DNA of 64,000 nt from Candidatus Desulfaltia sp. (GTDB lineage: Bacteria; Acidobacteriota; Aminicenantia; Aminicenantales; UBA8522). The notes below the pieces were generated by a model. The model was not told the origin of the DNA, ran no database searches, and worked only from the letters and a program-made list of their open reading frames with translations. Of this stretch, positions 2,141 through 44,861 are shown piece after piece. Position numbers and translations under genes: made by a program. Position 1 is the stretch's first letter. Each line of letters starts with the position of its first letter. Location: the NCBI GenBank assembly GCA_035528895.1, contig DATKXS010000151.1:3812-67811 (forward strand). The letters are read 5' to 3'.

Positions 2141-2338
2141 ATGGACAGAAGAGAGAAAGCAATCAAGGAACTTATGAGGTTCAAGAAGCGGGCGGGCTGG
2201 AGCCAGGATAGGCTGGCCAAGGAGCTGGGCGTTCACAATCAGACCGTGGGTGGCTGGCTCCGGGGGCTTTATAAGCCCAGCCTGCTGGCGCTCCCGCTGA
2301 TCGAGGCCTTTCTGAAGAAGGCAAGGAGGACGAAATGA
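2141..2338 (+). CDS. Small XRE-family helix-turn-helix transcriptional regulator (phage cI/Cro-like)
   Basis: 65 aa; ...AGWSQDRLAKELGVHNQTVGGWLRG... is a classic HTH_XRE signature. Its stop overlaps the start of the integrase gene. Confidence 0.55.
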   Translation: MDRREKAIKELMRFKKRAGWSQDRLAKELGVHNQTVGGWLRGLYKPSLLALPLIEAFLKKARRTK

Positions 2339-3533: not shown

Positions 3534-3606
3534 GGCCCGTTAGCTCAATAGGTAGAGCAGCGGACTCTTAATCCGCAGGTTGGAGGTTCGAGCCCTCCAC
3601 GGGTCA
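3534..3606 (+). tRNA. tRNA-Lys (anticodon CTT)
   Basis: 73-nt cloverleaf read directly. Acceptor stem ggcccgt/acgggtc with one G-U pair; D-arm agctcaataggtagagc; anticodon stem gcgga/tccgc with loop ctCTTaa; T-arm ggttcgagccctcc. No encoded CCA. Confidence 0.85.
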
Positions 3607-9558: not shown

Positions 9559-9620
9559 TCTGGTATAATCCCGGAGAGCATTATCTAGCAAAATTATACA
9601 AGAGAAGACCGGAAAAGGCC

Positions 9621-10259: not shown

Positions 10260-10269
10260 GGGAGGGAAG

Positions 10270-11055
10270 ATGAAGATTGCGGTGTCCGGGAAAGGAGGAG
10301 TCGGCAAGTCGACGATCGCCGGGATCTTGGCTCATTATTTTGTCCGGAACGGCTACAAGGTCCTGGCCGTCGATGCCGATCCCGACGCCAACTTGGCAGC
10401 CGCTCTCGGGATCCCGAAGTCAGAGACGCAAAGGATCTTGACCATATCTCAGCAGAGGGATCTCATCAAGGAGAGAACGGGCGCTTCTCCCCGGCAATTC
10501 GGCCAACTGTTTAAGATCAACCCCCGGGTCGATGATATCCCCGAGGACTACTCGTTCCCATTTAGGGGCATCCGGCTCTTGGTCATGGGGGCCGTTCGCA
10601 AGGGAGGGGAAGGATGTGCCTGCCCCGAGAATGTCCTGCTCAAGAGTCTGCTCTCTGAGATCATCCTGCGCCGGGATGAAGCCGTCATCGTCGACATGGA
10701 GGCTGGAATTGAACATCTGGGCCGGGCCACGGCGTCGGCCATCCAGGAAATGATCATTGTCGTTGAGCCCGGCTCCCGGAGCGTCGACACGGCTCTGACC
10801 ATCATGAGGCTGTCTCGGGACATCGGCCTTCAGGAGTTCCGGATTATCGGCAATAAAGTCCAGGACGATGACCAGGAGCGCTGGATTCGCTCTCATTTTC
10901 CGCCCGCCCTTATCTTAGGCATGATCCCCTACAGCGAGTCCATCCGGGACGCTGACCGGAGTGAACAGCCGCTCATCGACATTCTGGATGACCGGCTCCG
11001 GACGGAATTCAGGTCGATCTTCTCGGCCCTGATCAGCGGTCGACATCCGGCCTGA
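10270..11055 (+). CDS. cooC: CooC/AcsF-type Ni-insertion accessory ATPase for CODH/ACS
   Basis: Deviant Walker A SGKGGVGKST and the conserved Cys-x-Cys metal-binding motif (GEGCACPEN) typical of CooC. Confidence 0.75.
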   Translation: MKIAVSGKGGVGKSTIAGILAHYFVRNGYKVLAVDADPDANLAAALGIPKSETQRILTISQQRDLIKERTGASPRQFGQLFKINPRVDDIPEDYSFPFRGIRLLVMGAVRKGGEGCACPENVLLKSLLSEIILRRDEAVIVDMEAGIEHLGRATASAIQEMIIVVEPGSRSVDTALTIMRLSRDIGLQEFRIIGNKVQDDDQERWIRSHFPPALILGMIPYSESIRDADRSEQPLIDILDDRLRTEFRSIFSALISGRHPA

Positions 11056-11176
11056 AATTGGCCGGTATTTTTCCGGTAAAAATAGCATGATTATACGAAT
11101 TCTTACCCCCTCATTCCTATATTCCCAGTCGCAAAAAGGATATCCTGGATCCGGGAGATAAAGAGCGAGGTCTATC

Positions 11177-12217
11177 ATGAGCTTCAACCCTCAAGGTTTG
11201 GCCACGGCTATCGGCAGTCTGCCCCATCAGAGCCCCGAGGCGGCCTGCCGGGCCGTCTTGGACAGCATCCCGGAAATCCCGATCTGGCCCCAGCTTCCAG
11301 CTTTGGATTTCCGGGAAAGCATGGAGATTCAATACTCGGAGGGTCTTCCCGGTGTGGTCCTCGATCCCGTCGGCCGGAGGATGCATTTCGATACCGGCGG
11401 GGACATTACCCTGGGGCTGGAGAAGTTCTACGAGAACTATATGGCCGAGAACCTCGAGTACTTCCGGATCTCTCCGGGTTTCAGCCGGGGTATCTACGAG
11501 ATGGAGAGAATGTTGGCCGCGCAGAAACCGGCCGGTCTCCGCTATTTCAAGAACCAGGTGACCGGCCCCATTACCGTCGGCCTCGGCCGCACGGACGAAA
11601 AGAAGCGCTCCATCTATTACAACGAGATGATGAGGGATGTCATAGTCAAGGGCGCCGAGATGAAAGCCCGCTGGATGTTGACCCGGTTCCGGGCGCTCGG
11701 GGTGCCGCAGCTCTGCTTTATCGACGAGCCGATCCTGTCGGCCTTCGGTTCCTCGACCTATGTCAGTGTCCAGCGCTCCGACCTCGTTCAATACCTGCGG
11801 GACGTCATCGCGGCCGTCCACAAAGAGGGCGGCTTGGCCGGAATCCACTGCTGCGGGAATACCGAATGGACGATTCTCGTCGATGCCGGCACGGACGTCA
11901 TCAGCTTTGATGCCTTCGACTATGGGGAGACCATCGCTTACTACCCCGGTCCGATGAAAGACTATCTGGAGAGGGGAGGGGTGCTGGCCTGGGGCATCGT
12001 TCCGACTTCGGCCAAGATCGCCGCGGAAACCCCGGAAACCCTGCTCGGGCGGCTTCGTTCGGCCGTCGAAAACCTGGCCGGCAAGGGGATCCCGAAGAGC
12101 CTGATCTGGGAAAAGTGCCTGGTCACGCCGAGCTGTGGGACCGGTACGCTTCCCGTAGATTTGTCGGAGAAGGTTTTTGCCCAGTTGGGCGAGGTGAGCC
12201 GCCGGTTGCGGGCTTAA
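11177..12217 (+). CDS. URO-D-family zinc methyltransferase (MtaA/MtbA/MtsA-like methylcobamide:thiol methyltransferase)
   Basis: 346 aa. GIHCCGNT near residue 215 and VTPSCGTG near residue 318 mirror the MtaA zinc-ligand pattern (LHICGN ... PGCGI). Size and (beta/alpha)8 organisation are consistent. Confidence 0.55.
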   Translation: MSFNPQGLATAIGSLPHQSPEAACRAVLDSIPEIPIWPQLPALDFRESMEIQYSEGLPGVVLDPVGRRMHFDTGGDITLGLEKFYENYMAENLEYFRISPGFSRGIYEMERMLAAQKPAGLRYFKNQVTGPITVGLGRTDEKKRSIYYNEMMRDVIVKGAEMKARWMLTRFRALGVPQLCFIDEPILSAFGSSTYVSVQRSDLVQYLRDVIAAVHKEGGLAGIHCCGNTEWTILVDAGTDVISFDAFDYGETIAYYPGPMKDYLERGGVLAWGIVPTSAKIAAETPETLLGRLRSAVENLAGKGIPKSLIWEKCLVTPSCGTGTLPVDLSEKVFAQLGEVSRRLRA

Positions 12218-12261
12218 ACACCTGAGCCGGAAAACGGGAGAAATCGTTCGGACAGGAGACA

Positions 12262-14196
12262 ATGTCGAAACCGAAAAGCATAGACAAAACGGTCAACGAG
12301 ATGCTCGAGCAGGCCAAGGCCAAAGGCCTGGAGACGATCTGGGACAGGGCGGACGAGCAGACGCCCCACTGCGGGTTCGGGGAGCAGGGGGTTTGCTGCC
12401 ATGTCTGCTATATGGGGCCCTGCCGGATCAACCCGGCTGGAAAAAAGCCGCAAAAGGGCGTCTGCGGCGCCACTGCCGAAATGATCATCGCCCGGAATTT
12501 CTGCCGGAGGATCGCTGCCGGGACGGCCGCTCATTCCGAACACGGACGGGAGGTGGCCAAGACCCTGCTTTTGGCGGCCACGAACCCCGATTCGGGATAT
12601 GCCATCCGGGATGTCCGGAAGCTCAAAAAGGTCGCTCAGACTTTCGGCGTCTCCATCCAGGACAAACCCAACGACCGGATCGCCCTCGAGGTGGCCGAAC
12701 AGGCTTTGGCCGATTTCGGCCGGCAGGAGGGCGAGATCTCCTTTATCAAAGTGGCCCCCGAGAAGCGGCAGGCTCTCTGGCGTAAGCTGGGCGTCGTGCC
12801 GCGGGGTATCGACCGCGAGGTGGTCGAGATGTTGCATCGGACCACCATGGGAGTGGACCAGGATCACCGCAACATCATGCTCCAGGGTGCCCGGACAGCT
12901 TTGGCCGACGGTTGGGGCGGGTCGATGGTTGCAACTGAGCTCCAGGACATCTTGTTCGGGACGCCGTCCCCGATCCGCGGGCAGGTCAACCTCGGCGTCC
13001 TCTCCAAAACCGATGTCAACATCGTCGTCCACGGACACGAGCCGGTCCTCTCGGAGATGCTCGTCGCGGCTTCCAGGGATAAAGAACTCCAAGCGCTCGC
13101 CAGGTCGGCGGGAGCGACCGGGATCAACCTTGCGGGCATCTGCTGCACGGCTAACGAGATCCTTATCCGCCACGGGCTGCCGATCGCCGGGAACATCCTG
13201 CAGCAGGAGCTGGCCGTGGCCACAGGGGCAGTGGACGCGATGATCGTCGACGTCCAGTGCATTATGCCCTCGCTGCCCCAGATCTGCAAGAACTTCCACA
13301 CGCTGCTCATCACCACTTCGCCCAAGGCCAAGATCGACGGGGCCCGGTCTGTGGATATTCAGGCGGAGAACGCCTATCAGGGGGCCAGGACGATCATCCG
13401 GGAGGCCATCACCAACTACGCTAACCGCGGTGCGGTCGACATCCCCCGGGACAAGATGGACCTCGTCGCCGGTTTTAGTCATGAGGCTATCACTTACATG
13501 CTGGGCGGCTCTTTCCGCGGTTCCTATGTACCCCTTAACGATAACATCATCAACGGCCGGATCAAGGGAGTCGCCGGAGTCGTCGGCTGCTCCAACCCGA
13601 AGACAACCCACGACAAGGGGCACGTCGGCCTGGTCGAAGAGCTCATCGCCAACGATATCCTCGTCGTTCAGACCGGCTGTTCCGCCATCGCCTGCGCTAA
13701 GGCCGGGTTGCTGACTCCGGAATCGGCCATCAAGTACGCGGGTAAAGGCTTGGCCGAGGTCTGCCAAGCTGTCGGCATGCCCCCGGTTCTCCACTCCGGG
13801 TCGTGCGTCGACAACAGCCGCATCCTGATCGCTTTGACCGAGATGGTCAGAGTCGGGGGTTTGGGTCAGGACATCAGCGACCTGCCGGTGGCCGGTGCGG
13901 CTCCGGAGTGGATGAGCGAGAAGGCTATCGCCATCGGGCAGTACTTCGTCGCCTCCGGCGTGTTCACTGTCTTCGGCATCGGGCTCCCGATCACGGGAAG
14001 CGAGCTTTTTTGCCGCCACATCTTTGACGAGTACAAGGACCTTTTCGGCGGCCATTGGGCGGCTCAGCCCGATGGAACCAAGATAGCCGGTATGATCATC
14101 GACCATATCCACGCCAAACGGGAGAAGCTGGGCATCAGCAAGGGCAAGGAAAGGGTGTTGTTCGATATGGAGATGCGGCGTCAACTGGACGTGTGA
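12262..14196 (+). CDS. cooS: Anaerobic carbon monoxide dehydrogenase catalytic subunit (CooS / AcsA, Ni-Fe-S)
   Basis: 644 aa. The N-terminal Cys cluster HCGFGEQGVCCHVCYMGPC...KGVCGA (D- and B-cluster ligands) plus C-cluster region motifs support a CooS-family CODH. Confidence 0.9.
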   Translation: MSKPKSIDKTVNEMLEQAKAKGLETIWDRADEQTPHCGFGEQGVCCHVCYMGPCRINPAGKKPQKGVCGATAEMIIARNFCRRIAAGTAAHSEHGREVAKTLLLAATNPDSGYAIRDVRKLKKVAQTFGVSIQDKPNDRIALEVAEQALADFGRQEGEISFIKVAPEKRQALWRKLGVVPRGIDREVVEMLHRTTMGVDQDHRNIMLQGARTALADGWGGSMVATELQDILFGTPSPIRGQVNLGVLSKTDVNIVVHGHEPVLSEMLVAASRDKELQALARSAGATGINLAGICCTANEILIRHGLPIAGNILQQELAVATGAVDAMIVDVQCIMPSLPQICKNFHTLLITTSPKAKIDGARSVDIQAENAYQGARTIIREAITNYANRGAVDIPRDKMDLVAGFSHEAITYMLGGSFRGSYVPLNDNIINGRIKGVAGVVGCSNPKTTHDKGHVGLVEELIANDILVVQTGCSAIACAKAGLLTPESAIKYAGKGLAEVCQAVGMPPVLHSGSCVDNSRILIALTEMVRVGGLGQDISDLPVAGAAPEWMSEKAIAIGQYFVASGVFTVFGIGLPITGSELFCRHIFDEYKDLFGGHWAAQPDGTKIAGMIIDHIHAKREKLGISKGKERVLFDMEMRRQLDV

Positions 14197-14197
14197 T

Positions 14198-16403
14198 CAT
14201 GTCGAGGATCATAGCCACGCGAGCCATCCGGGGCGCCCACAAGCTGGTGGCCCGGGCCGAACGGGAGCTCCTCCGGGCCATCGAAGAAAAGGGAGCGGAC
14301 GCCCGGGTAGAATTCCCCAACACGGGCTACTATCTTCCCATCTCGCACGGGATTCTCGGGCTGAAGATCGAGACTCTGGGCGGCCTGCGGGAGCTGCTGG
14401 CCGAAGCCCAAGAGCTGCTGCCTCCGGTCCCCTCGGACAATCTCTGGCTCCCCTATCTGGGGAATACGCTCGACGCCGGGATGGCGACACTGTTCGCCGA
14501 TGAGATCATCGAGGCCATCAAGTACACCCAGGACCCTCTCCCATATCTTACCGGGTCCAACCCGAGAGACGGCCGTCTCTGGCTCGGGGCGGCCAACGAT
14601 GTCATTATGCGCGAGCGGGGCATCGAGTTCGTCGACAACACCGCCCCCGGGTTTGCCGCCTGTGTCGGCTGCTGTCCGACGAACGAGATCGCGGTCAGGA
14701 TCGCCAGGGAACTCCAGGAAAAGAACCTCTATGTCTTCATGTCCGCGGCGACGGACGGAAAATCCATGGCGCGGCAACTGGCCGAAGAGGGGATCGAGAT
14801 GGGTTGGGAGACAAGGCTCGTCCCCTTCGGTGATGATGTCACGGCCACCGTTCACGCCCTGGGGTTCTCGACGAGGGTGGCTCTTTCCTTCGGGGGCGCC
14901 CAGCCGGGGGATTACCAGCGTGTCCTTCGCTACAACAAGAACAGGGTTTTCGCCTTCGTATTGGCCCTGGGCCCGGTCGATGACGAAAAGCATGCTCAGG
15001 CGGCCGGGGCCATCAACTACGGGTTCCCGACGATCGCCGACACGGATATCGACAGCATCCTGCCGACGGGCATCTGCACCTACGAGCACGTCGTTTCGCC
15101 CGTTCCCCTGGAAAGGATCGTTTCCAAGGCGATCGAGGTCCGGGGACTCAAGATCACCGTCACCAAGGTTCCGATTCCCGTGCCGTTCGGCCCCGCCTTC
15201 CAGGGAGAGCGGGTCCGGAAAGAGGACATGTATGTGGAGCTGGCCGGGACAGACAAACCGGGCTTCGAATATTTGACCGGCCGGAGCCTGGAGGAGGTCG
15301 AGGACGGGAAGATCGAAGTCATCGGGCCGGAGATCGAGGACATGGAAGAGGGCAGCCAGCTTCCGCTAACCCTCTGGGTGGAAGTCGCGGGCCGCCAGAT
15401 GCAGCCCGATTTCGAGCCGATCCTGGAGCGGCGCCTGCATGATTTCATGAACATGGCCCATGGCGTTTTTCATATGGGGCAGCGGGACATCAACTGGGTC
15501 CGGATCAGCAACGAGGCCAAGGGAGCCGGGTTCCGGTTCCGTCACTTCGGCTCGATCATCCACGCCAAGCTGCACGGCGAGTTCGGCAAGATCGTCGACA
15601 AGGTCCAGGTGCGGATATACACCCGGGAGAAGGAGATCCGGGAGCTCATCGAGACCGCCCGGACAGTCTACCGCCGGCGTGATGAACGGCTGGCCGATCT
15701 GACCGACGAGGCCGTCGAGACCTTCTATTCGTGCACCCTCTGCCAATCCTTTGCCCCGAATCATGTTTGCGTCATCACCCCGGAACGCTCCGGCCTCTGC
15801 GGCGCCTATAACTGGCTCGACGGCAAGGCCGCCCACCAGATCAATCCCACCGGCGCCAACCAGCCCATCTTGAAGGCCCAGGTCATCGACCCGGTCAAGG
15901 GGCAATGGCAGGGGATCAATGAATTCGTCCTCAACGCCTCGCACAAGACGCTCCAGGTCTTCAGCGCTTACAGTATTATCGACAACCCCATGACCTCCTG
16001 CGGCTGCTTCGAATGCATCTCCTGCGTCCTCCCTTCCTGCAACGGGATCATGACGGTCTACCGGAATTTTCCCGGGATGACGCCGAGCGGGATGAAGTTC
16101 TCGACCCTGGCGGGGACGGTCGGGGGAGGCATCCAGACGCCCGGGTTCATCGGCCACAGCAAGCACTATATCAGCAGCCGGAAATTCATCAGCGCGGAGG
16201 GCGGAGCCAGGCGAATCGTCTGGATGAACCGCGAGCTCAAGGAAGAACTGGACTCACAGTTGCGCGAGATCGGCCGGCGCGAAGGGATCGAGAACTTCCC
16301 GGAGATGATCGCCGACGAGACCGTGGCCGTGACCGAGGAAGAAGTGCTTCCCTATATCACCAGGATGAACCATCCGGCGCTGGCCATGCCGCCTTTGTTT
16401 TGA
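14198..16403 (+). CDS. acsB: Acetyl-CoA synthase (AcsB; CODH/ACS alpha subunit, A-cluster)
   Basis: 735 aa from the ATG 1 nt after the cooS stop. A-cluster ligands are present: SCTLCQSF...HVCVITPERSGLCGA and the Cys-Gly-Cys motif (MTSCGCFECISC). The track ORF (14055-) is over-extended upstream. Confidence 0.9.
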
Positions 16404-16418
16404 GAGGGAGACCCGGAC

Positions 16419-17171
16419 ATGAAGACGATCGCCATCGCCGGCAAGGGAGGGACGGGGAAATCGACCCTCGCCGCCCTGGCCGTCCGCCGGCTGAAAGAGA
16501 GGAAAGGCGGGTCAATCCTGGCCGTCGACGCCGACTCCAACGTCAATCTCAACGACCTGCTCGGCGTCCCGCTCAAGGAGACGGTCGGGGCCATCCGGGA
16601 AGAGATGAGAACCCGGATCTCCGAACTTCCCGGAGGGATGACCAAGCAGCAATTCCTTGAATACAAGATCCAGACGAGCCTGGTCGAGGGACCGGATTTC
16701 GACCTCATCGCCATGGGCCGGCCTGAGGGTCCGGGATGCTACTGCTACGCCAACAACCTGCTCCAGGATATCCTTCGAACGCTCTCCGCCAACTATGACT
16801 ACGTGGTGATCGACAACGAAGCCGGGATGGAGCACCTGAGCCGCCGGACCAGCCAGGCCATCGATTGTCTCCTGATCGTCTCCGACGCCACGGCCCGGGG
16901 GATCGCCACGGCCGGGAAAATCAGCCGGCTTCTGACTGAGCTCGAAACCCGCGTCGGCCGGAAATATCTCGTCCTCAACCGCGTCGCCGGGCCTCTGTCG
17001 GACCCCGTCGAAGCCGCCATCCGCGAAGAGAAGTTCACGCTCCTCGAGACGATCCCGGAGGACGATGCGCTCTTGAAGATGGACCGGCAGGGAATCCCCG
17101 TCTATTCGGTTTCCGCCGGCTCCCCGGCCTACCGGTCCGTCAGCCGGATGATGGACAGACTGGACCTCTAA
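16419..17171 (+). CDS. cooC: CooC-type Ni-insertion accessory ATPase (second copy)
   Basis: AGKGGTGKST Walker A and a Cys-x-Cys motif (GPGCYCYANN). It sits between acsB and acsD, as in acetogen acs operons. Confidence 0.8.
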   Translation: MKTIAIAGKGGTGKSTLAALAVRRLKERKGGSILAVDADSNVNLNDLLGVPLKETVGAIREEMRTRISELPGGMTKQQFLEYKIQTSLVEGPDFDLIAMGRPEGPGCYCYANNLLQDILRTLSANYDYVVIDNEAGMEHLSRRTSQAIDCLLIVSDATARGIATAGKISRLLTELETRVGRKYLVLNRVAGPLSDPVEAAIREEKFTLLETIPEDDALLKMDRQGIPVYSVSAGSPAYRSVSRMMDRLDL

Positions 17172-17183
17172 GGGAATCGAAGC

Positions 17184-18182
17184 ATGACCATCGATATTCC
17201 AAGAGAAGCCAACCCGGGCAAGATCATCGAGGTGACGATCGGGGCGACGGCTGACCAGGGCGGGACGCGCTCTCACACCGTGACCCTCGGCGGGAGCACG
17301 GCCCTGCCGTTTCATTTTTTCGAGGGGGACCACCCCCATCGGCCCGTCGTGGCCATGGAAGTCTTCGATTCGGTCCCCGCCAAGTACCCGGATTCCCTGC
17401 GGGATTACACCCATGACGTCCTGGCGAAGCCCGCTGAGATGGCCCGGCGGTGCGTCGCGGAATGGGGGGCGGAGATGATCAGCGTCCGGCTGGAAGGGAC
17501 TCATCCCGAGAAAAGCAATAAAAGCGCCGAAGAGGCCGTCGAGTTGGTCAAGGAAGTCCTGGCCTCGGTCCAGGTCCCGTTGATCATCACCGGACACAGC
17601 CATTTCGAGAAGACGAACGAGGTCATGAAAAAGGTCTGCGAGGCCACGGCAGGAGAGAACTGCCTGATCAACTATGTCGAGACGAACAACTACAAGACGA
17701 TCGCCGCCGCCTGTTTGGCCTATCATCATAGCCTCGTGGCCCAGTCTCCGATCGATGTCAACCTGGCCAAACAGCTGAATATCCTCCTCACCGACATGAA
17801 CTTTCCTCCGGCCAGGCTGGTGCTGGACCCGCTGACCGGAGCCCTCGGCTACGGTCTGGAATATACCTATTCCATCATGGAGAGAATCCGGAATGACGGC
17901 CTGGCCGGCGACCCGATGCTGGCCTTCCCGATGCTCACGACACCGGGCTTCGAATGCGCCAAGGTCAAAGAGGCCCGGGCTCCGGAGAAAGACTATCCTG
18001 GATGGGGTGATGAGAAACGCCGGGGCGCCTATTGGGAGATCGCCACAGCGATGAGCCTGCTCGTCGCCGGCGCGGACCTGTTGATCATGGCCCATCCCGA
18101 GGCCGCCGAGGTCGTCCGCAAGCAGATCGCCGAGATGTCCGATTCCGGAAAGGAGGGAGTCCGTGGCGCTCTCCGGACTTGA
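17184..18182 (+). CDS. acsD: Corrinoid iron-sulfur protein small subunit (AcsD / CdhD-like)
   Basis: 332 aa TIM-barrel-like subunit. Positioned immediately before, and overlapping by 20 nt, the [4Fe-4S]-containing large subunit. Confidence 0.75.
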   Translation: MTIDIPREANPGKIIEVTIGATADQGGTRSHTVTLGGSTALPFHFFEGDHPHRPVVAMEVFDSVPAKYPDSLRDYTHDVLAKPAEMARRCVAEWGAEMISVRLEGTHPEKSNKSAEEAVELVKEVLASVQVPLIITGHSHFEKTNEVMKKVCEATAGENCLINYVETNNYKTIAAACLAYHHSLVAQSPIDVNLAKQLNILLTDMNFPPARLVLDPLTGALGYGLEYTYSIMERIRNDGLAGDPMLAFPMLTTPGFECAKVKEARAPEKDYPGWGDEKRRGAYWEIATAMSLLVAGADLLIMAHPEAAEVVRKQIAEMSDSGKEGVRGALRT

Positions 18183-19500
18183 CATCTTTAAGCTCTTGCC
18201 CAAGACGAACTGCGGCGATTGCGGCGTTCCCACCTGCATGGCCTTCGCCATGAAGATCGCCCAGAAGAAGGCCGAGCTTTCGAGCTGTCCCCATGCTTCC
18301 GAGGAAGCCAAGGCCGTCCTGGGCGCGGCCGGCGAACCTCCGATCCGACTGCTCAAGATCGGCCCTGAGAAGGCTCTGGAGGTGGGTGGGGAAACTGTCC
18401 TCTTCCGGCACGAAAAGACGTTCTTTCACCCGCCCGGGATAGGCCTGGAGCTGCGGACATCCTCAGCCGAGGACAGCATCCGCGCCGCTATTCAGCAGTG
18501 GGAGGATTTTCAGATCGAACGGGTGGGCGAGCTCCTCCAGGCCGACCTCTTTTTCATCTCCCATGATTCGCCGGGAAAATCCGCTTTCCTGAGGACGATC
18601 GCGCTCGTCAAAGCGAATTCGGAAAAAGGAGTAATTGTCGACTGTCCGGACGAGGGATCTTTGAAGGCGGGCCTCGAGCTTCTCCGGAATGACCGGCCGG
18701 CGATCTACCTGCGCCGGCCGGTGACGGACAAGGACATCGGGCTGGCGAAAGCCGCGGGAGCCAGCCTGATCATCTCGGGCTCCTCGCTGGAAGACCTGGC
18801 CGATCAGACGGAGAGGGCCCGGCAAGCCGGTCTGACTGACCTCATCCTGAACGGCCCGGCGGCGGGTTTGGGAGAGGCCATCCGGAACAACACGATCCTG
18901 AGACGGAGCGCCCTCAAGAGGAACTTCAAGCCTTTCGGCTATCCCATTTTGACCCGGATCCAGAGCGAAGACGGGTTCGAGTCGCTGGCCGGGGCGACCG
19001 TCCTCCTCTGCAAGTATGCCTCGATCATCGTCCTGCCCCGGTTTGATAAGGCTCTGCTCTACACCCTTTTTACCCTCCGGCAGAATATCTACACCGACCC
19101 CCAGAAGCCGATCCAGGTCGACCCCAAGGTCTACGCCATCGGCGAGCCCACTCCGGGATCTCCCGTCTTCGTGACGACGAATTTCTCTTTGACCTATTTC
19201 ATCGTCTCGGGGGAGATCGAAAACTCCGGGACGTCCGCTCATCTCGTCGTCTGCGACACCGAGGGGCAGTCCGTTCTCACGGCCTGGGCGGCGGGAAAGT
19301 TCGTCCCGGAAAAGATCGCCAAGTTCATCAAGGACATCAAGCTAGAAGAGATGGTCGAGACCCGAAAACTCGTCATCCCCGGCTTAGTGGCCCAGATCTC
19401 CGGCGAGCTGGAAGAAAAACTTCCCGGCTGGGAGATCATCGTCGGCTGCCAGGATGCGGCCGACATCCCCTCTTTTGTCAAGAGCGTGAATCTGGCCTGA
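18163..19500 (+). CDS. acsC: Corrinoid iron-sulfur protein large subunit (AcsC / CdhE-like)
   Basis: 445 aa with the N-terminal [4Fe-4S] motif KTNCGDCGVPTCMAFAMK characteristic of the CFeSP large subunit. Confidence 0.85.
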   Translation: MALSGLDIFKLLPKTNCGDCGVPTCMAFAMKIAQKKAELSSCPHASEEAKAVLGAAGEPPIRLLKIGPEKALEVGGETVLFRHEKTFFHPPGIGLELRTSSAEDSIRAAIQQWEDFQIERVGELLQADLFFISHDSPGKSAFLRTIALVKANSEKGVIVDCPDEGSLKAGLELLRNDRPAIYLRRPVTDKDIGLAKAAGASLIISGSSLEDLADQTERARQAGLTDLILNGPAAGLGEAIRNNTILRRSALKRNFKPFGYPILTRIQSEDGFESLAGATVLLCKYASIIVLPRFDKALLYTLFTLRQNIYTDPQKPIQVDPKVYAIGEPTPGSPVFVTTNFSLTYFIVSGEIENSGTSAHLVVCDTEGQSVLTAWAAGKFVPEKIAKFIKDIKLEEMVETRKLVIPGLVAQISGELEEKLPGWEIIVGCQDAADIPSFVKSVNLA

Positions 19501-19516
19501 TGAATACGATAGAGTC

Positions 19517-21421
19517 ATGAAGAAGGCTTGCCGAGTCGAATTCCTGCCCTTCCTCAGCCGCCGCGATTATGCTCGCGGGACGAACCTTCTGGATGCGGTG
19601 AGAGAAATCAGCCTGCCACTCAAGTCAACCTGCGGCGGAAAAGGAACCTGCGGCGAATGCCTCGTCCGGATCAAGAGCGGAAAAGCCACGAGCAGGGCAT
19701 CGTCCGGTCTTCCGGAAGATGTCCGGCGGCGGGGATATGCATTGGCCTGCCGGACCGAGATCGAGGATGATCTCACGGTCGAATTGCCGAGATTTGAAGA
19801 GCGATCCGTCCGTGCCCTCGCCGGCTCCCGCTTTTTCGAGGCCCATCCCGACCGGATCTCGGGCGTCTTCGAGGTCAGCCCGGCCGTCAGGAAGCTCCGG
19901 CTCTCCCTGCCGGCTCCGACGCTGGCCGATAACTCCAGCGACCTGCGGCGGGTCCAGCGGCAGATTCAGAAATCAGATGGTCTCCGCTGCCGGCAGGCCG
20001 AATATCATGTTTTGCTCAGGCTGGCCGCCGCGGTGAGGAAACAGGATGGCCAAGTGACCGCCGTCCTTTCTCGCTCCGGCTCCGAATGGCGGCTGGTCGA
20101 TCTCCAGCCCTTCCCGCCGCCCCAAAACGTCTACGGTCTGGCGTGTGACCTGGGGACGACGACGGTCGTCACCGCGATCGTCGACTTGGAGGACGGGAGG
20201 ATCCTGAGCACGACATCGGGCCTCAACCAGCAGCTCCGCTGCGGGGAGGATGTGATCTCGAGGATCGATTATGCCGGGAAACCGGGTCGTTTGCGGGAAC
20301 TCCAGATGCTGGCCGCCCGGACGGTCAATTCCCTACTGGAAAAAGCGTGCCGGGAGGCCGGGATTTCGAGCGCCGATATTTATGATGTCTCCCTGGCCGG
20401 CAACACGACAATGACCCATCTTCTTCTCGGTCTTGACCCGCGCACCATTCGGGAAGAGCCCTATATCCCGACCGTGAACCTGGTGCCGCCGGTCAAAGCC
20501 GTTGACCTGGGATTGGATTTGAATCCCGAGGCCATCGTCCATTGCGCCCCGGCCGTCGGGAGCTACGTCGGAGGCGATATCACCGCCGGTCTTCTCGCCA
20601 CTCCGATCCTCAGGACGGAAGAGGAGACTTCGCTGTTCATCGATGCCGGGACCAATGGAGAATTGGTCATCGGCAACAGAGATTGGCTGGCCGCCTGTGC
20701 CTGCTCGGCCGGCCCGGCCTTCGAAGGGGGCGGGACGAAATGCGGCCTTCCGGCCGGAGACGGCGCCATCGAGTCGGTGACCATTCAGGGAAATGGCCGG
20801 CTCGAATACCGGGTGATCGGAGGAGGGAAGCCCAAGGGGGTGTGCGGCTCCGGCCTGGTCGACCTTCTGGCCGAGCTTTTCGTCCACGGCTTCATCGACC
20901 GCGCTGGGAAGCTAAACGACAGGAAGGCGGGGACGAGGTTCGTCAGGAAGGAGGACGGCGCCGGTTTTCTGATCGAACGCGCTTCTCGATGCGAATGGGG
21001 CAGGGACCTGGTCATCTCCGAGAAGGACATCGCCAACCTAATCCGCACCAAGGGCGCGATCTATTCGGCCTGCGCCGTCCTTCTGAAGAACATCGGCCTG
21101 GCCTTTGACCGGCTGGACGCCGTCTATCTTGCCGGCGGGTTCGGCGAGCATCTCAACATCGAGAACGCCGTCCGGATCGGCCTCCTGCCCGATCTCGAGC
21201 GGGAAAAATTCTGCTACCTGGGAAACACCTCTCTGACCGGCGCCTATCTCGGGCTGGTCTCGGAGAAGAACCGCGAGCTGGTCGAAACCATCGCCGCCAA
21301 GATGACCTACCTCGAGTTGAACGCGGAACCGGGCTACATGAATGAATACACCGGCTCTCTCTTTTTTCCCCATACGGATATCGGACTTTTCCCGACGGTC
21401 AAAAAAATCGTCGAGCCTTGA
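19517..21421 (+). CDS. Reductive activator of corrinoid proteins (RACo-type; [2Fe-2S] ferredoxin + ASKHA ATPase)
   Basis: 634 aa. N-terminal plant-type ferredoxin Cys pattern (CGGKGTCGECLV...C), then a large ASKHA-fold region. Located directly after acsC, as RACo is in acetogens. Confidence 0.7.
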   Translation: MKKACRVEFLPFLSRRDYARGTNLLDAVREISLPLKSTCGGKGTCGECLVRIKSGKATSRASSGLPEDVRRRGYALACRTEIEDDLTVELPRFEERSVRALAGSRFFEAHPDRISGVFEVSPAVRKLRLSLPAPTLADNSSDLRRVQRQIQKSDGLRCRQAEYHVLLRLAAAVRKQDGQVTAVLSRSGSEWRLVDLQPFPPPQNVYGLACDLGTTTVVTAIVDLEDGRILSTTSGLNQQLRCGEDVISRIDYAGKPGRLRELQMLAARTVNSLLEKACREAGISSADIYDVSLAGNTTMTHLLLGLDPRTIREEPYIPTVNLVPPVKAVDLGLDLNPEAIVHCAPAVGSYVGGDITAGLLATPILRTEEETSLFIDAGTNGELVIGNRDWLAACACSAGPAFEGGGTKCGLPAGDGAIESVTIQGNGRLEYRVIGGGKPKGVCGSGLVDLLAELFVHGFIDRAGKLNDRKAGTRFVRKEDGAGFLIERASRCEWGRDLVISEKDIANLIRTKGAIYSACAVLLKNIGLAFDRLDAVYLAGGFGEHLNIENAVRIGLLPDLEREKFCYLGNTSLTGAYLGLVSEKNRELVETIAAKMTYLELNAEPGYMNEYTGSLFFPHTDIGLFPTVKKIVEP

Positions 21422-21463
21422 ACAAAGGCTCGAGGACGGAGATATTTGCAAGGAGGAAGAGCA

Positions 21464-22350
21464 TGTCCGCAGCGATCCTGGAATTGATCCGGAAACGCAG
21501 GGTGCTCCTCGACGGCGGCTTCGGGACCGAGCTCATCCGGCTCGGATTCCCTCAAGGGGCCTGTCCCGAAACCTGGAATGTGGAGAGGCCCGATGTCGTC
21601 AAGGAGATCCACGGGAGCTATTTTGAGGCCGGTTCGGATGCCGTCCTGACCAACAGCTTCGGGGGAAGCGCGATCAAACTGGCCTCTCACGGCCAGGACA
21701 AAAGGTGCTATGAATTGAACAAAGCAGCGGCGACCATCGCCAATGAGGTCAAGCCCGCGGGATGTTTCGTCGGCGGAAGCCTGGGGCCGACGGGGAAGTT
21801 CCTCCAACCGCAGGGCGAGTTCACGGAACGGCAGTTCGAGGATGCCTACGCCGAGCAGGCGAGGGGTCTGGCCGACGGCCTGGCCGATTTTCTGTTGATC
21901 GAGACACAGTACGATCTCAGAGAGGCGCACTGTGCCTTGCGGGCGGCCCGCCGGGTTACGGCCATCCCGGTCTTCGTGACCATGACCTACAACCGGGTTC
22001 CGAGGGGCTTTTTCACGATGATGGGGAACAGCGCCGCCCAGTGCCTCGAAGAGCTCGAAAGGGAAGGAGTCCCCGTCCTGGGAGCCAACTGCACCCTCGA
22101 CAGTGCGGACATGGCCGACCTGGTCAAGGCCATGAGAGAGAAAACCGGGCTTCCGCTGATCGCCCAGGCCAACGCCGGGAAACCCTCTCTTTCCGCGCAA
22201 GGGGAGGTCTCCTACTCGCAGGGATTGGAGGACTATCTTCAGCACATCCCCCGGACGATCGAGAACGGAGCGAACATCATCGGCGGCTGCTGCGGGACGA
22301 ACCCCGAGTATATTCGCCGGATGGCCGCCCTCGTTAAAGAGGAAAGTTGA
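21464..22350 (+). CDS. Homocysteine-binding-domain (MetH N-terminal-like, S-methyltransferase Pfam family) zinc methyltransferase
   Basis: ILELIRKRRVLLDGGFGTEL (MetH-like ILDGAMGT), a first Zn ligand in GANCTL and the terminal GGCCGTNPEYI (MetH GGCCGTTP Zn-ligand pair). Start chosen at the ATG 8 nt after AGGAGG (21464); the track start 21418 overlaps the RACo stop. Confidence 0.7.
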
Positions 22351-22439
22351 AAAGTCCTTCCGTTTGGATATGATAGTGAACTATGTCACGGAAACTGGAT
22401 TCTTTTGGAACCGATCGAACATCGGAGAAAGGAGAGACG

Positions 22440-23090
22440 ATGAGAAAAGAGGAATTATTTGCCCGGATGGAAAAGGCGATCATCGAAGGAGGGAAGGCCG
22501 AAGCGCAAGCCCTGGCCCGCGAGGCGATCAAGGCCAAGCTCGATCTCAACGAGGTCATCGAAAACGGCTATGTGCCGGGGATCCAGAAGGTCGGCGACCT
22601 CTGGGAAAAGGGCGATTACTTCCTGCCCGAGCTGATCACCAGCGCCGAGTGCATGAAGGCTGCCATGGCCGTCCTCCAGCCCGAGCTGGACAAGGCCAAG
22701 ATCAAGACCAAGTCCAAGGGCAAGGTCGTGATCGGCACTATCGAAGGGGACATCCATGACATCGGCAAAAACCTGGTCGCGTCCATGCTCTCGGCCAACG
22801 GGTTCGAGGTCTTTGACCTGGGCGCGGACGTGAAACTGGAGAGGTTCATCCAGAAGGCCGAGGAGACAGAGGCCGATTTCATTTGCCTTTCGGCCCTGCT
22901 GACGACCACAATGCTCGGGCAGAAAAAAGCCATCGAGATGCTCAAGGAGAAGAACCTCTACGGAAAATTCAAGGTCCTGGTCGGCGGAGCGCCGGCCAGT
23001 CAGAAATGGGCCGATGACATCGGGGCCGACGGGTACGCGGAGAACGCCATGCTCGCGGTCAAGGTGGCCAAGCGGCTGATGGGAGCCTGA
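22440..23090 (+). CDS. Cobalamin-binding corrinoid protein (second copy)
   Basis: 216 aa from MRKEELFARMEKAI. B12-binding motifs EGDIHDIGK (DxHxxG), SALLTTTM and GGAP. About 35 % identical by eye to the 9621 corrinoid protein. Confidence 0.8.
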   Translation: MRKEELFARMEKAIIEGGKAEAQALAREAIKAKLDLNEVIENGYVPGIQKVGDLWEKGDYFLPELITSAECMKAAMAVLQPELDKAKIKTKSKGKVVIGTIEGDIHDIGKNLVASMLSANGFEVFDLGADVKLERFIQKAEETEADFICLSALLTTTMLGQKKAIEMLKEKNLYGKFKVLVGGAPASQKWADDIGADGYAENAMLAVKVAKRLMGA

Positions 23091-23137
23091 AGCCGCGACC
23101 GACGTCCTAGCGTCAGAACGGAAAGGAAGGAAGACAG

Positions 23138-24604
23138 ATGATCAAAACAATCCGACCGAAACTGGAATTGTTGAGCCGCCGGTTCATCGAAAAAATCATC
23201 GATGAGGCCTATGAGATCCTGGACAAGCAGGGGATCTTCGTCGAGAACAAGAACGCCCTGAAGCTCTTCGAGCAAGCGGCAATGAAGGTCGACAAGAAAT
23301 CCCAGCGTGTCCATCTCAAGCGTCGGCTCGTGGAGAAATGCCTGGCCACGGCGCCGTCCGTCGTCCATCTTTACGACCGCGCCGGAAAAAGGGAATACGC
23401 GGTCGGCGGCGACGAGGTCCATTTCGACCCAGGGTCTGCGGCCGTGACCATTCTCGACCACAAAACAGGGGAAGAGAGAAAGCCGGACACCGGCGACCTG
23501 GTCCGCTTCTACAGGTTGACCGAATGCCTGGAGAACATCCATTTCCAGAGCACCGGCCTGATCAGCTCCGATGTCCCCCCTGCGATCGCGGATATCTACC
23601 GGCTCTACCTCGGACTGCTGTATTCCAACAAGCCCTTTGTCACGGGCACCTTCCGGGTGGAGTCCTTCCGGCCGATGAAGGACCTCCTGGTGGCGGTCCG
23701 GGGAAGCGAGAAGGAACTGGCCAGGAAGCCCCTGGCCATCTTCGATGCCTGTCCCTCTCCTCCTCTCAAATGGAGCAACCTGACGACCCAGAGCCTGATC
23801 GATGCGGCCCGGGCGGGGATCCCCTCCGAGCTCATCTCGATGGGCATGACGGGCGCCACCTCTCTGGTGACGATCGCCGGCACCCTGGTCCAGCATGTCG
23901 CTGAGAACCTCTGCGGCGTCGTCATCGTCCAGCTCGCCAAACCGGGCGCGGCGGTGATCTTCGGCGGCTCCCCCTCCAGCTTTGATATGAGGCGCGGAAC
24001 GACGCCGATGGGCGCGATCGAGACGATGATGATCGATGTCGGCTACAGCCAGATCGGGAAATATCTGAACCTGCCGACCCACGCCTACATGGGTTTGAGC
24101 GACGCCAAGACTAACGATGCCCAGGCCGGGCTGGAGACAGGGCTCGGGGCGGTGCTGGGAGCTCTGGCCGGCGTCAATGTCATCAGCGGACCCGGGATGC
24201 TCGACTTCGAGAGCTGTCAGAGCCTGGAGAAGCTGGTCATCGACGATGAAATCTGCGGCATGGCTTATCGGCTGATCGCCGGCATTGCCCAGCGCGAGGA
24301 CCCCATCGCCGCGGACAAATTCGTTGGTTTCACTCCGGAAACGCAGTTCCTCACCCTGCCCCATACCAAGAAATGGTACAGGATGGAGCATTCCTACCCC
24401 GTGATCGCGGACAGGGACACCTACGACGCCTGGGTGGCCCTGGGGAAAAAGCCGATAGCGGAGAGGGCTTCAGAACAGCTGGAGGAAATCCTGCGGTCCA
24501 ACCCGCCCGCTCTTGCGGAGAAGCATGTCCGGAGCGATCTTACAAAAGTCATGATCGCCCTCGCCAAAGCCAATGGGATAGCCACCCTGCCCGAACTGCC
24601 GTAG
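23138..24604 (+). CDS. MttB-superfamily methyltransferase, non-pyrrolysine type (quaternary-amine:corrinoid methyltransferase-like)
   Basis: 488 aa, uninterrupted by an in-frame amber codon. Size and TIM-barrel-like composition match non-Pyl MttB homologues such as the glycine-betaine methyltransferase MtgB. Confidence 0.75.
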   Translation: MIKTIRPKLELLSRRFIEKIIDEAYEILDKQGIFVENKNALKLFEQAAMKVDKKSQRVHLKRRLVEKCLATAPSVVHLYDRAGKREYAVGGDEVHFDPGSAAVTILDHKTGEERKPDTGDLVRFYRLTECLENIHFQSTGLISSDVPPAIADIYRLYLGLLYSNKPFVTGTFRVESFRPMKDLLVAVRGSEKELARKPLAIFDACPSPPLKWSNLTTQSLIDAARAGIPSELISMGMTGATSLVTIAGTLVQHVAENLCGVVIVQLAKPGAAVIFGGSPSSFDMRRGTTPMGAIETMMIDVGYSQIGKYLNLPTHAYMGLSDAKTNDAQAGLETGLGAVLGALAGVNVISGPGMLDFESCQSLEKLVIDDEICGMAYRLIAGIAQREDPIAADKFVGFTPETQFLTLPHTKKWYRMEHSYPVIADRDTYDAWVALGKKPIAERASEQLEEILRSNPPALAEKHVRSDLTKVMIALAKANGIATLPELP

Positions 24605-24670
24605 ACGAGCTTCTGAAGAGCGGATACGTCTTCGTTTTCTTGGCTGGATATCCCGGAAAGGAGCGCGACG

Positions 24671-26119
24671 GTGAGCGAGATGATCAAGTCCATCGCCAAT
24701 CCACGCCTGAGTTTGAACATTCTCAGCCCTGAGGATATAGAGAAGATCCACCGCTCGAGCCTGCGGGTGATCGAATCGGCGGGCGTGAGATTCCCTTCGA
24801 AGAAGGCGCTCGATATCTGGCGGTCCCACGGCGCCGCGGTCGACGAGGGTTCGATGGTCGTCAAAGCCCCGGGGCGACTGATCGAGGAGGCGATTCGCCA
24901 GGCTCCTCCCGTCTATACGTTGGCGGCCGGAAATCCGGCCCTCGACCTTCTCCTGGACGGCAACCACGTCTATGTCGGCACGGACGGCTGCGGCGTCGAG
25001 ATCATCGACATCCGGACGGGAGAACGGCGGAGATCGATCCTCCAGGACGTCGCCGACATCGCCCGGGTCGCCGACGGTCTCGATGAGATCGGCTTTCACT
25101 GGGTTCCTGTCTCCGCCCAGGACTGCCCGCCGCAGTCGCGCGGACTTCATGAACTCCTGGCCATCTGGAAGAATTCCACGAAACATGTCCAGACGGAAAG
25201 CATCTATACGGAGACCGAAGCCCGCGCCGCCGTGGAGATGGCGGCTCTGCTTGCGGGGGGAAAAGAAGCCCTGAGGAAGCGCCCCCTGCTTTCGATCATG
25301 GAGTGCACGGTCTCTCCTCTAGCCCATGAAAAAGGGAGCCTGGAAGCCGCCCTGGTCGGAGCGGAATCCGGCCTCCCAGTCGGTTTCATGAGCATGGCCT
25401 CGTGCGCCTCGTCCGGACCGGCCACACTCGCCGGGAACCTCGTCGTCGCCAACGCGGAAGTGCTGAGCGGTCTGGCTCTCGTCCAGCTGGCTTATCCCGG
25501 AGCGCCCGTTTTCTATGCCGCGGCCCAGACGGTGATGGACCTCAGGACAGGCGCCTACACGGGAGGGGGCCCGGAGGATTTTCTTTTCGGCGCGGCCAGC
25601 AACAGACTGGCCGACTTCTACAGCGTTCCGCTCTCGATGGGATCCTTCGCCACCGGCGCTAAGGAGCCGAACTGGCAGGCGGGTCTGGAGAACGCCCTGT
25701 CCACTTTCATGGCCTCGGCGGCGATCTCGGACATGCTCCTGGGCGTCGGGCTTCTCAACGGGAGCACGGTCTGGTCTTTCGCCCAGATGCTCATGGACTG
25801 CGAGATCTTCGGCATCGTCGCGAAAATGATGGAGGGAATCCCGGTGGATGAAGAGACCCTGGCCGTCGAGGCCATCCGGGATGTCGGGCCGGGGGGGACG
25901 TTCCTGACCCATCCCCACACCAAGCGGCATCTCCGCGGGCTCTGGCTGAATTCCTTTCTCGACCGCCGGCCCTACGGCGTCTGGGAAGAAAAAAAGGACG
26001 GCGCGCCCGACTGGGCCCTGGAAAAAGCCAGGCGAATCCTCGCGGGTCATCAGTCTGCTCCGCTGGAGCCTCGACTCGAAACGGAGCTCGGCCGGATCAT
26101 CAAAACCATGGAAAGATAA
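24671..26119 (+). CDS. MttB-superfamily methyltransferase, non-pyrrolysine type (second paralogue)
   Basis: 482 aa, clearly paralogous to the preceding ORF (shared blocks such as ...PGAPVFYAAAQ/ PGAAVIFGGSP..., GGTFLTHPHTKRH / TQFLTLPHTKKW). No in-frame TAG. Confidence 0.75.
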   Translation: MSEMIKSIANPRLSLNILSPEDIEKIHRSSLRVIESAGVRFPSKKALDIWRSHGAAVDEGSMVVKAPGRLIEEAIRQAPPVYTLAAGNPALDLLLDGNHVYVGTDGCGVEIIDIRTGERRRSILQDVADIARVADGLDEIGFHWVPVSAQDCPPQSRGLHELLAIWKNSTKHVQTESIYTETEARAAVEMAALLAGGKEALRKRPLLSIMECTVSPLAHEKGSLEAALVGAESGLPVGFMSMASCASSGPATLAGNLVVANAEVLSGLALVQLAYPGAPVFYAAAQTVMDLRTGAYTGGGPEDFLFGAASNRLADFYSVPLSMGSFATGAKEPNWQAGLENALSTFMASAAISDMLLGVGLLNGSTVWSFAQMLMDCEIFGIVAKMMEGIPVDEETLAVEAIRDVGPGGTFLTHPHTKRHLRGLWLNSFLDRRPYGVWEEKKDGAPDWALEKARRILAGHQSAPLEPRLETELGRIIKTMER

Positions 26120-26213
26120 AATAGCAGGGAATTTATTACTTTTCATTTCATGAATAATCCAGGATAAATCATCCTTTAAAAAATATGGGGGATGGACGGG
26201 CTTGTCCTCGGCT

Positions 26214-27005
26214 TCAGGATGGAGAGCCGTTCTTGAAAACAAGCGAGCGATAATTGCTCCCGGTGACGGCGGCCACTTCTTCCAGGGAGACCTGTTTGAT
26301 TTCAGCCAGGACCCTGGCCGTCTCGATAACAAAAAGGGGCTCGTTTCGCTTCCATTTGTCCCGCAATTTCTGGGGAACAAGATAGGGCGAGTCAGTTTCG
26401 ACGAGGAGTTTTTCCAGGGGAAGAGCGGCGGCGATCTCCCGCAGGCCGGACGCGTTCCGGTAGGTCAGGATGCCCGAGAAAGAAATCAGGAAGCCCAGGC
26501 CGATCATCCGCTCGGCGGTCTCCCGGTCCTCGGTGAAACAGTGGAGCACGCCTCCGCGGCTGAACCCTTCTTCCTCAACCGCGGCCAGGATCTCCTTTCC
26601 CGCCTCCCGGCTGTGGATGATGACGGGAAGCTCCAACTCCTGGGCCAGTCGAAGCTGAGCTCGAAAGACCTCGGCCTGGACCGGGGCAGGGGAGTAGTTA
26701 TAGTGGTGGTCGATCCCTATCTCCCCGACCGCCGAGATTTTCCCGGCCCTCGCTAGTCCGCGAATCGCTTCGAGATGGGACGGGGAAGAATCCTTGGCCT
26801 GGTGGGGATGGATTCCTACCGCGGCCGAGATCCATGGAAATTCCTGCCTGAGGTCGAGAATTCGGGACAGGCTCTCCGGAGCAGTCAGGTCGATAGGGCA
26901 GAGCAGGTGCTTGACGCCGCCGGTCCAAGCCCGCCGCACGACCTCCTCGCGGTCCGGGTCGAACTCGGCCATATCCAGATGAGCGTGGGAGTCGGCGATT
27001 TCCAT
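26214..27005 (-). CDS. TatD-family metal-dependent hydrolase/DNase
   Basis: Starts MEIADSHAHLDM (HxH motif). VGEIGIDHHYN, HSREA and VETDSPYL are hallmark TatD motifs. Confidence 0.85.
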   Translation of the reverse strand: MEIADSHAHLDMAEFDPDREEVVRRAWTGGVKHLLCPIDLTAPESLSRILDLRQEFPWISAAVGIHPHQAKDSSPSHLEAIRGLARAGKISAVGEIGIDHHYNYSPAPVQAEVFRAQLRLAQELELPVIIHSREAGKEILAAVEEEGFSRGGVLHCFTEDRETAERMIGLGFLISFSGILTYRNASGLREIAAALPLEKLLVETDSPYLVPQKLRDKWKRNEPLFVIETARVLAEIKQVSLEEVAAVTGSNYRSLVFKNGSPS

Positions 27006-44848: not shown

Positions 44849-44861
44849 CGAGAGAGTCATC

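Follow-up and report, generated by a model that had tools for sequence, protein, structure and literature searches.

The gene cluster analysed here lies in a stretch of 64,000 nucleotides (the window) from Candidatus Desulfaltia sp. of the Aminicenantia (assembly GCA_035528895.1, contig DATKXS010000151.1, positions 3,812 to 67,811), and joins a homocysteine (Hcy) methyltransferase to a corrinoid protein and to two members of the MttB superfamily. Its relatives have been described in several bacteria. The MtgBCDE system, or split MetH, of Rhodobacterales and S. meliloti was reportedly described by Price in 2018, as cited elsewhere, and MtgBCDE is a relative that has been tested genetically. In R. 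pomeroyi genetics showed that MtgC and MtgD are required for glycine-betaine demethylation as well as for methionine synthesis; the model proposed there has MtgC as the connection between MtgB, MtgD and the Hcy module MtgE (Mausz et al. 2025, PMC12478193). For a cluster present in Electryoneota and in diverse bacteria it was hypothesised that methionine is made in a corrinoid-dependent way, with the methyl group coming from an unknown donor (Williams et al. 2022, PMC9324843). For Dehalococcoides mccartyi a small zinc-dependent homocysteine methyltransferase that uses methylcorrinoid, core-MetE, was described and proposed to take the methyl group directly from the corrinoid iron-sulfur protein (CoFeSP or CFeSP); acsE is absent from this organism (Deobald et al. 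2020, PMC7005905). As the core idea behind our cluster is already in the literature, the value of the locus is that of a well-defined and conserved test case and not of a new concept.

Positions 19517-26119 of the window hold five co-directional genes on the forward strand that code for the corrinoid activase RACo, the homocysteine methyltransferase (HcyMT), the corrinoid protein CP2 and the two MttB homologues MttB1 and MttB2. The list of open reading frames (ORFs) and Pfam place all five where a preliminary description of this DNA had put them. We propose that HcyMT, CP2 and MttB1 could form a split MetH-like cobalamin-dependent methyltransferase, to which MttB2 would add an accessory donor module, and we give this reading a probability of about one half. 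The locus contains the parts that such a system needs by gene content, namely a stand-alone PF02574 barrel with the Zn-binding Cys3 set, a separate corrinoid protein and a linked PF06253 protein that lacks pyrrolysine. The split MetH-like reading is favoured because HcyMT is MetH-like, carries invariant motifs and has its gene between those for a corrinoid activase and its neighbouring corrinoid protein in tight cassettes, and because related loci recruit a MetH-type activation domain and their cassettes hold no other methyltransferase 2 (MT2). The conserved synteny of HcyMT, CP and MttB1 likewise supports a methionine-synthase analogue. The domain identities, the metal and cofactor motifs, the absence of pyrrolysine and the conserved gene linkage are direct observations and are given below.

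The five genes of the cassette

HcyMT (21463-22350, +) is a protein of 295 amino acids that consists of a single MetH-like homocysteine-binding zinc barrel (PF02574, E 3e-66). It carries the motifs LGANCT and GGCCGT and its residues C210, C276 and C277 align with C247, C310 and C311 of E. coli MetH, which we take to be the zinc ligands from established MetH biochemistry. The intact ligand set of a MetH-like barrel that had been noticed before (GANC, GGCCGT) was thus borne out by the alignment of the three cysteines. Among PDB sequences the top matches were the Hcy modules of MetH with 151 bits, against 65-69 bits for betaine-homocysteine methyltransferase (BHMT) and 55 bits for MmuM. The motifs DGGxGT, TNSF, IET, GANC and GGCCGT are invariant in 12 family members that share 69-89% identity with the window protein, and homologues of 53-96% identity come almost only from metagenome-assembled genomes of Candidatus Aminicenantes. 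These features lead us to propose that HcyMT acts as a methylcorrinoid:homocysteine methyltransferase.

The start of HcyMT is the ATG at 21463, seven bases past an AAGGAGG at 21450-21456, in agreement with the length of its homologues (292-297 amino acids). This start leaves a spacer of 41 nt behind RACo. The overlap of 4 nt between the two genes in the preliminary description was an artefact, since a TTG start at 21418 had been taken mechanically. A perfect 9-bp hairpin (TCGAGCCTT-GAACA-AAGGCTCGA, window 21411-21433) spans the RACo stop codon just 5' of the HcyMT ribosome-binding site. No T-run follows it on the forward strand, and from its position at the junction of acs genes and methyltransferase cassette it could act in processing or attenuation. 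A scan for promoters and terminators was uninformative, with counts no higher than in shuffled sequence.

The gene upstream of HcyMT (19517-21421, +) has the Pfam domains Fer2, RACo_linker, Raco_middle and RACo_C_ter of an ATP-dependent reductive activase of corrinoid proteins. Its top NCBIfam model is AcsV with 636 bits, and the 2Fe-2S ferredoxin, linker, middle and ASKHA domains together with a position in an acs cluster near acsC and acsD identify it as RACo/AcsV. An activase for the corrinoids of the cassette had been expected and a RACo is indeed encoded upstream, but it is an AcsV-type gene of the acs operon that follows acsC and not a dedicated activase. On the other side of HcyMT the corrinoid protein CP2 (22440-23090, +) combines a B12-binding cap (PF02607) with a Rossmann domain (PF02310) and shows the DxHxxG motif as GDIHDIGKN. 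It scores 231 bits with TIGR02370, over the cutoff, and 232 bits with the MtgC model, under the cutoff of that model. CP2 most likely starts at the ATG at 22440 after an AGGAG and not at 22383.

MttB1 (23138-24604, +; 488 amino acids, PF06253 E 2e-85) and MttB2 (24671-26119, +; 482 amino acids, PF06253 E 1e-86) both belong to the non-pyrrolysine part of the MttB superfamily. The GTG start of MttB2 is preceded by GGAAAGGAG. The two proteins cover the full PF06253 profile and share 26% identity, so that MttB2 is a divergent paralogue. We compared them with D. hafniense MtgB and M. barkeri MttB, the two references that were taken from PDB alignments, and found 30-33% identity to either. Where M. 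barkeri MttB has its pyrrolysine, MttB1 has Leu and MttB2 has Ala, both proteins score under the TIGR02369 cutoff, and neither ORF has an internal stop or an in-frame UAG at the pyrrolysine position. The divergence of the paralogues and their independence of pyrrolysine had both been anticipated, and the concern that they might be pyrrolysine-dependent pseudogenes does not apply to these uninterrupted genes. By the tests made MttB1 and MttB2 are neither MtgB nor pyrrolysine-type MttB.

Glycine betaine is bound in D. hafniense MtgB by Y97, R312, H348 and F356 (PMC13080624). The alignment did not show this tetrad in the window proteins, which have S/H/S/E (MttB1) and G/S/L/S (MttB2) at the four positions. 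Among 40 orthologues, three of the MttB1 residues are kept in 38-40 and the fourth in 33. MttB1 and MttB2 therefore probably do not bind glycine betaine in the manner of D. hafniense MtgB, and by family membership only a quaternary-amine donor is plausible for them. Of the earlier proposal of a split B12-dependent methionine synthase fed by a quaternary amine such as betaine, the split synthase drew support from the conserved HcyMT-CP-MttB1 cassette whereas the donor drew none from these residues. We propose that MttB1 is a substrate:corrinoid methyltransferase and the conserved partner of CP2. MttB2 is accessory; it is present in about 7 of 80 Aminicenantes loci, several times beside an amino-acid permease of the APC family.

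The acs operon and conservation of the cassette in Aminicenantes

The cassette is the tail of a long operon on the forward strand, in the order CP1, CooC-like, a 346-amino-acid ORF, CODH, ACS, CooC, AcsD, AcsC, RACo, HcyMT, CP2, MttB1 and MttB2. The operon opens with a second corrinoid protein, CP1 (9621-10259), and a CooC-like ATPase (10270-11055), followed by the 346-amino-acid ORF (11177-12217). Then come CODH (12262-14196; Pfam Prismane), ACS (about 14199-16403; CdhC/ACS_CODH_B_C), CooC (16419-17171; CbiA), AcsD (17184-18182; CdhD) and AcsC (18163-19500; FeS and CdhD). A start of ACS at the TTG at 14055 (+) was rejected as it overlaps CODH, and homologues of 734 amino acids point to a start near 14199. 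The core order is the same in locus L001 and about 20 other loci, and RACo comes after acsC in all loci of the acs type, where it is the last conserved gene of the acs operon. A regulator with a PocR sensor and AraC-type features (8293-9591, -) is divergent from CP1 and the acs operon, and the same pairing is seen in L022.

The 346-amino-acid ORF gave no match to Pfam, NCBIfam or PDB sequences even with a six-sequence profile. It carries the JGI name 'methionine synthase II (cobalamin-independent)', and its AF2 model (pLDDT 82) found MetE structures as the top Foldseek matches with E about 1e-8, the only route by which its fold as a core-MetE-like TIM barrel was recognised. H224-C225-C226 and C320 are invariant, there are about 4,900 homologues, and about 19 Aminicenantes loci keep the gene in this position. 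Together with the neighbouring CP1, this MetE-like protein is on the basis of the model a candidate for a second corrinoid-dependent thiol methyltransferase of the operon. HcyMT had been regarded as the only methyl-acceptor enzyme, which holds within 19517-26119 but not for the whole operon, where the MetE-like candidate and CP1 have to be considered. Genes for a Zn-thiol methyltransferase (HcyMT, MetE-like) stand at both ends of Aminicenantes acs clusters.

Pterin-binding methyltransferases were looked for with Pfam and with tblastn. Among the ORFs of the window Pfam found no gene of the AcsE/MtgA type (PF00809-type), the pterin module of E. coli MetH (residues 354-649) had zero tblastn matches in 1.33 Mb of window and related loci, and no acsE-like pterin-binding methyltransferase lies within 10 kb of the Aminicenantes acs clusters (window 9621-21421, L001-L083).

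For synteny we scanned one genome per species, which gave 116 confirmed loci of which 80 were retained, with about 10 kb fetched on each side; downstream counts use the 60 of these 80 loci that have at least 3 kb downstream of HcyMT. Four arrangements were seen. In the arrangement of the window (A) the acs operon is followed by RACo, HcyMT, CP, MttB1 and sometimes MttB2. Arrangement B has the acs operon, RACo and HcyMT and then unrelated genes (L013, L017 and L074, and also L001 and L011, which have CP-MttB1 5 kb further on). In arrangement C the acs genes are absent from the locus and an amino-acid permease is followed by a second RACo paralogue, HcyMT, CP and MttB1, and in arrangement D HcyMT is alone or directly after a permease. 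CP and MttB1 are immediately 3' of HcyMT in 28/60 loci and anywhere in the locus in 35/60, and in 35 loci MttB1 adjoins CP. The gap between HcyMT and CP has a median of 11 nt with overlaps to -43 nt. The second RACo paralogue, which is 33% identical and has the full set of four RACo domains, lies a median of 23 nt before HcyMT and is followed by HcyMT-CP-MttB1 in each of the 16 loci that have it, none with acs genes in the locus. Conservation of this four-gene unit therefore does not depend on acs. From the four arrangements it follows that HcyMT has two independent recurrent linkages, one to CP-MttB1 and one to the acs cluster, and since it also occurs near acs without CP and MttB, alone or by a permease, it may have more than one methyl donor.

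Other genes recur around these units. An ORF of 200 amino acids with a weak match to the SAM-binding activation domain of MetH (SAM, S-adenosylmethionine; PF02965, 22-28 bits) is found inside or beside CP-MttB1 in 9-10 loci (for example L054 19734-20336, L003 3945-4547 and L086 9379-9990). In the window tblastn found no MetH-type activation-domain protein and RACo is present instead. Eight loci have a class I SAM-dependent methyltransferase of 276 amino acids between HcyMT and CP, and in L022, where HcyMT is 3 kb from the acs cluster, a DUF3786 gene follows HcyMT. The APC-family amino-acid permease (PF13520) is not in the window and is repeatedly linked to the system elsewhere (L059 6745-8163 and 28 other loci; L007 14348-15793; L018 16321-17769). 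It precedes the alternative RACo, immediately precedes a stand-alone HcyMT, or stands between MttB1 and MttB2. The permease may be the transporter of the methyl donor, and its linkage is a hint that this donor is amino-acid-like or cationic. No pterin-binding MT2 was found beside stand-alone HcyMT genes, whose conserved neighbours are unrelated housekeeping genes (OCD, amidohydrolases, M16 peptidase, QueH, LarA, galactokinase).

Further features of the window lie outside the operon. A phage-type integrase gene (2335-3519) is immediately beside a tRNA gene (3534-3606) and the pair may mark the boundary of an integrated element. A cluster at 40786-48558 (+) comprises NuoF-like and molybdopterin/NuoG-like (formate dehydrogenase-type) genes, an NfnAB-like pair and an acetyl-CoA hydrolase/transferase, a gene set that fits an organism with C1 and electron-bifurcating metabolism. 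The ORF at 26202-26756 (+; 184 amino acids) is not a gene, since a well-supported TatD gene occupies the opposite strand there (26214-27005, -).

Proposed mechanism and alternative explanations

From these data we infer a scheme that extends to every methyl-transfer step, to acceptor and donor and to the sharing of RACo. The MttB-superfamily barrel would replace the methyl-tetrahydrofolate-binding module of MetH. MttB1 or MttB2 would bind an N-methylated compound and move one methyl group to Co(I)-CP2, and HcyMT would activate homocysteine at its Zn(Cys)3 site and take the methyl group from CH3-Co(III)-CP2 to give methionine and Co(I). Occasional oxidation to Co(II) would be repaired by the ATP-dependent RACo encoded just upstream, which as the (CFeSP) activase of the acs operon would have to be shared with CP2. 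In physiological terms the system would serve an anabolic scavenging of methyl groups into methionine and SAM without methyl-tetrahydrofolate.

Several points weigh against this scheme. Activation of CP2 by the acs RACo is not assured since the RACo of C. hydrogenoformans reportedly acts by 'redox-selective partner recognition', as the title of a 2014 paper by Hennig puts it. Neither the window, with only a tRNA, nor seven cassette loci showed a SAM or cobalamin riboswitch that would mark the genes as a methionine set or help to choose among the explanations. HcyMT is without a nearby RACo or CP/MttB in 18/53 loci that have both flanks, and conversely CP070757.1 has a trio of CP, activation domain and MttB1 without HcyMT within 10 kb. 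In four genomes (L015 14028-20724, also L019, L040 and L042) the series of HcyMT, SAM-dependent methyltransferase, CP and MttB1 leads straight into a pyrrolysine cassette, with the acs operon adjacent. This cassette consists of a PylS-like class II aminoacyl-tRNA synthetase core, PylB, PylC, PylD, a second corrinoid protein and the dimethylamine methyltransferase MtbB, which is interrupted by an in-frame TAG (in L015 codon 20383-20385). With such a pyrrolysine cassette and its MtbB adjoining in four genomes the region looks catabolic and not anabolic, and this counts against a role in methionine synthesis because a methionine sink cannot carry a catabolic flux.

The same neighbourhood is among the reasons to consider that two systems stand side by side, which in our view has a minor though real chance of being correct. 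CP2, MttB1 and MttB2 would then be a catabolic demethylase for a methylamine or quaternary amine, and the methyl group of CP2 would leave through an MT2 elsewhere, of the pterin-binding MtgA/MtqA type or the MetE-like protein of 11177-12217, into the Wood-Ljungdahl pathway. HcyMT would belong to the acs operon as the Hcy module of a distributed methionine synthase, with its methyl group from methyl-CFeSP (AcsCD) or from another corrinoid/pterin pair. In keeping with this RACo and HcyMT end the acs operon, and in L013, L017 and L074 (arrangement B) HcyMT is the last gene of the operon and what comes next is unrelated and on the opposite strand, which counts also against the split MetH-like scheme. 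In L047 HcyMT is at the head of the acs cluster, which tells against that scheme in the same way. In L001 and L011 the acs operon is followed by opposite-strand genes and CP-MttB1 is 5 kb away, and in the closed genome CP070825.1, which has a type B locus, CP-MttB1 is about 19 kb from HcyMT. The tblastn search revealed no acsE-like gene in any acs locus, and a direct transfer from CoFeSP to homocysteine is already a published hypothesis (PMC7005905). On the other hand the tight altRACo-HcyMT-CP-MttB1 unit, with genes that often overlap, is found in at least 16 genomes without acs in the locus, HcyMT is the sole MT2 in these cassettes, and the MetH-type activation domain occurs in CP-MttB1 cassettes, all of which speaks against this explanation. 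As a separate observation, the opposite strand between HcyMT and CP-MttB1 in CP070825.1 (L085 1-4558) carries an MttB homologue (477 amino acids), an SNF-family sodium symporter, a corrinoid protein and a MetH-activation-like protein, and genomes of this type hold several MttB systems in one region.

Two further explanations change the chemistry of HcyMT itself. There is only a slim chance that HcyMT is a cofactor-independent enzyme of the BHMT/MmuM type with betaine or a sulfonium compound (S-methylmethionine, dimethylsulfoniopropionate) or similar as the direct donor, in which case CP2 and MttB would demethylate this class of substrates further, acting for example on the dimethylated product. 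The loci in which HcyMT is alone or directly after an APC permease recall mmuP-mmuM, and in P. inhibens, whose MetH is split, the homologous Hcy module Bmt forms methionine in vitro with dimethylsulfoniopropionate or betaine as the direct donor (PMC12366255). The NCBIfam model PRK07534 ('betaine-homocysteine S-methyltransferase') gives HcyMT 206 bits but its cutoff is 338, and an S. meliloti protein annotated as Bhmt was reinterpreted by Mausz et al. as an MtgE-type module (PMC12478193). HcyMT is moreover far nearer to MetH Hcy modules than to the solved BHMT or MmuM, and in the cassettes 5-40 nt separate its gene from that of the corrinoid activase on one side and that of the corrinoid protein on the other. 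We regard it as very unlikely that the thiol is itself a methyl carrier, such that HcyMT would methylate homocysteine or a related thiol from CH3-CP2 and the MetE-like enzyme would hand the methyl group to CP1 or CFeSP in a folate-free route from methylamine to acetyl-CoA. Two different folds of Zn-thiol methyltransferase do flank an acs operon without acsE, and methylamine methyltransferase systems including the pyrrolysine-type MtbB are clustered with acs, and no pterin MT2 is present. Yet this route is purely inferential. Going by general knowledge of corrinoid methyltransferases it is thermodynamically uphill for a thioether to methylate Co(I), the conserved amino-acid-binding motifs of HcyMT point to genuine homocysteine, and acsE is perhaps encoded elsewhere in the genome.

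One may speculate further that HcyMT is a hub that accepts methyl groups both from CP2 loaded by MttB and from the acs CFeSP, which would link the acetyl-CoA pathway, methylamines and methionine independently of folate. In its extreme form the methyl group would reach acetyl-CoA synthase not on tetrahydrofolate but on homocysteine/methionine, with the MetE-like enzyme of 11177-12217 running in reverse, in a lineage without acsE in its acs clusters. We consider this idea improbable.

If the split MetH-like reading were correct, a phylum widespread in sediments and the subsurface would make methionine and hence SAM from environmental N-methyl compounds via cobalamin and without methyl-tetrahydrofolate. 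The recently recognised link between demethylation (of methylamine or betaine) and methionine synthesis would then extend from aerobic marine Proteobacteria to anaerobes, and a further subfamily of MttB would be added. Since acs operons without acsE repeatedly have HcyMT at one end and a MetE-like gene at the other, the published idea of a direct transfer from CoFeSP to homocysteine becomes testable in a second lineage.

Comparison with described systems

The catabolic systems of D. hafniense (MtgB/MtgC/MtgA) and E. limosum (MtpB/MtcB/MtyB) share with the window a methyltransferase 1 of the non-pyrrolysine MttB superfamily, a cognate corrinoid protein and a reductive activase. They differ in their MT2, which is a pterin-binding methylcorrinoid:tetrahydrofolate methyltransferase, and in their catabolic function.

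The proposal made for core-MetE matches the acs-RACo-HcyMT arrangement as well as the MetE-like gene 11177-12217 at the other end of the operon. Core-MetE has the MetE fold, whereas HcyMT has the MetH/BHMT (PF02574) fold, and Dehalococcoides is without CODH whereas the window has it.

MtgBCDE is like the window in that the Hcy-binding (MtgE/Bmt), corrinoid (MtgC) and MttB-family (MtgB) proteins are separate, and its activase is of the RamA type. A single corrinoid protein is common to methionine synthesis and N-methyl demethylation in MtgBCDE. It also has the pterin-binding MtgD, essential for both functions, and none was found in the window. MtgBCDE is aerobic and uses glycine betaine as donor, whereas the MttB proteins of the window lack the residues that bind it. 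In the surveyed marine bacteria mtgE is usually apart from mtgBCD, and in S. meliloti MtgBCDE is colocalised; in the window HcyMT is clustered with its putative partners.

By gene content the cassette resembles the cluster of Williams et al., which has the same three core genes for HcyMT, a corrinoid protein and MttB. That cluster carries a MetH-type activation gene, as do 9-10 of the related Aminicenantes loci, in the place of which the window has the ATP-dependent RACo upstream. The window further differs from it in that its cassette is joined to the end of an acs operon and includes a second MttB paralogue.

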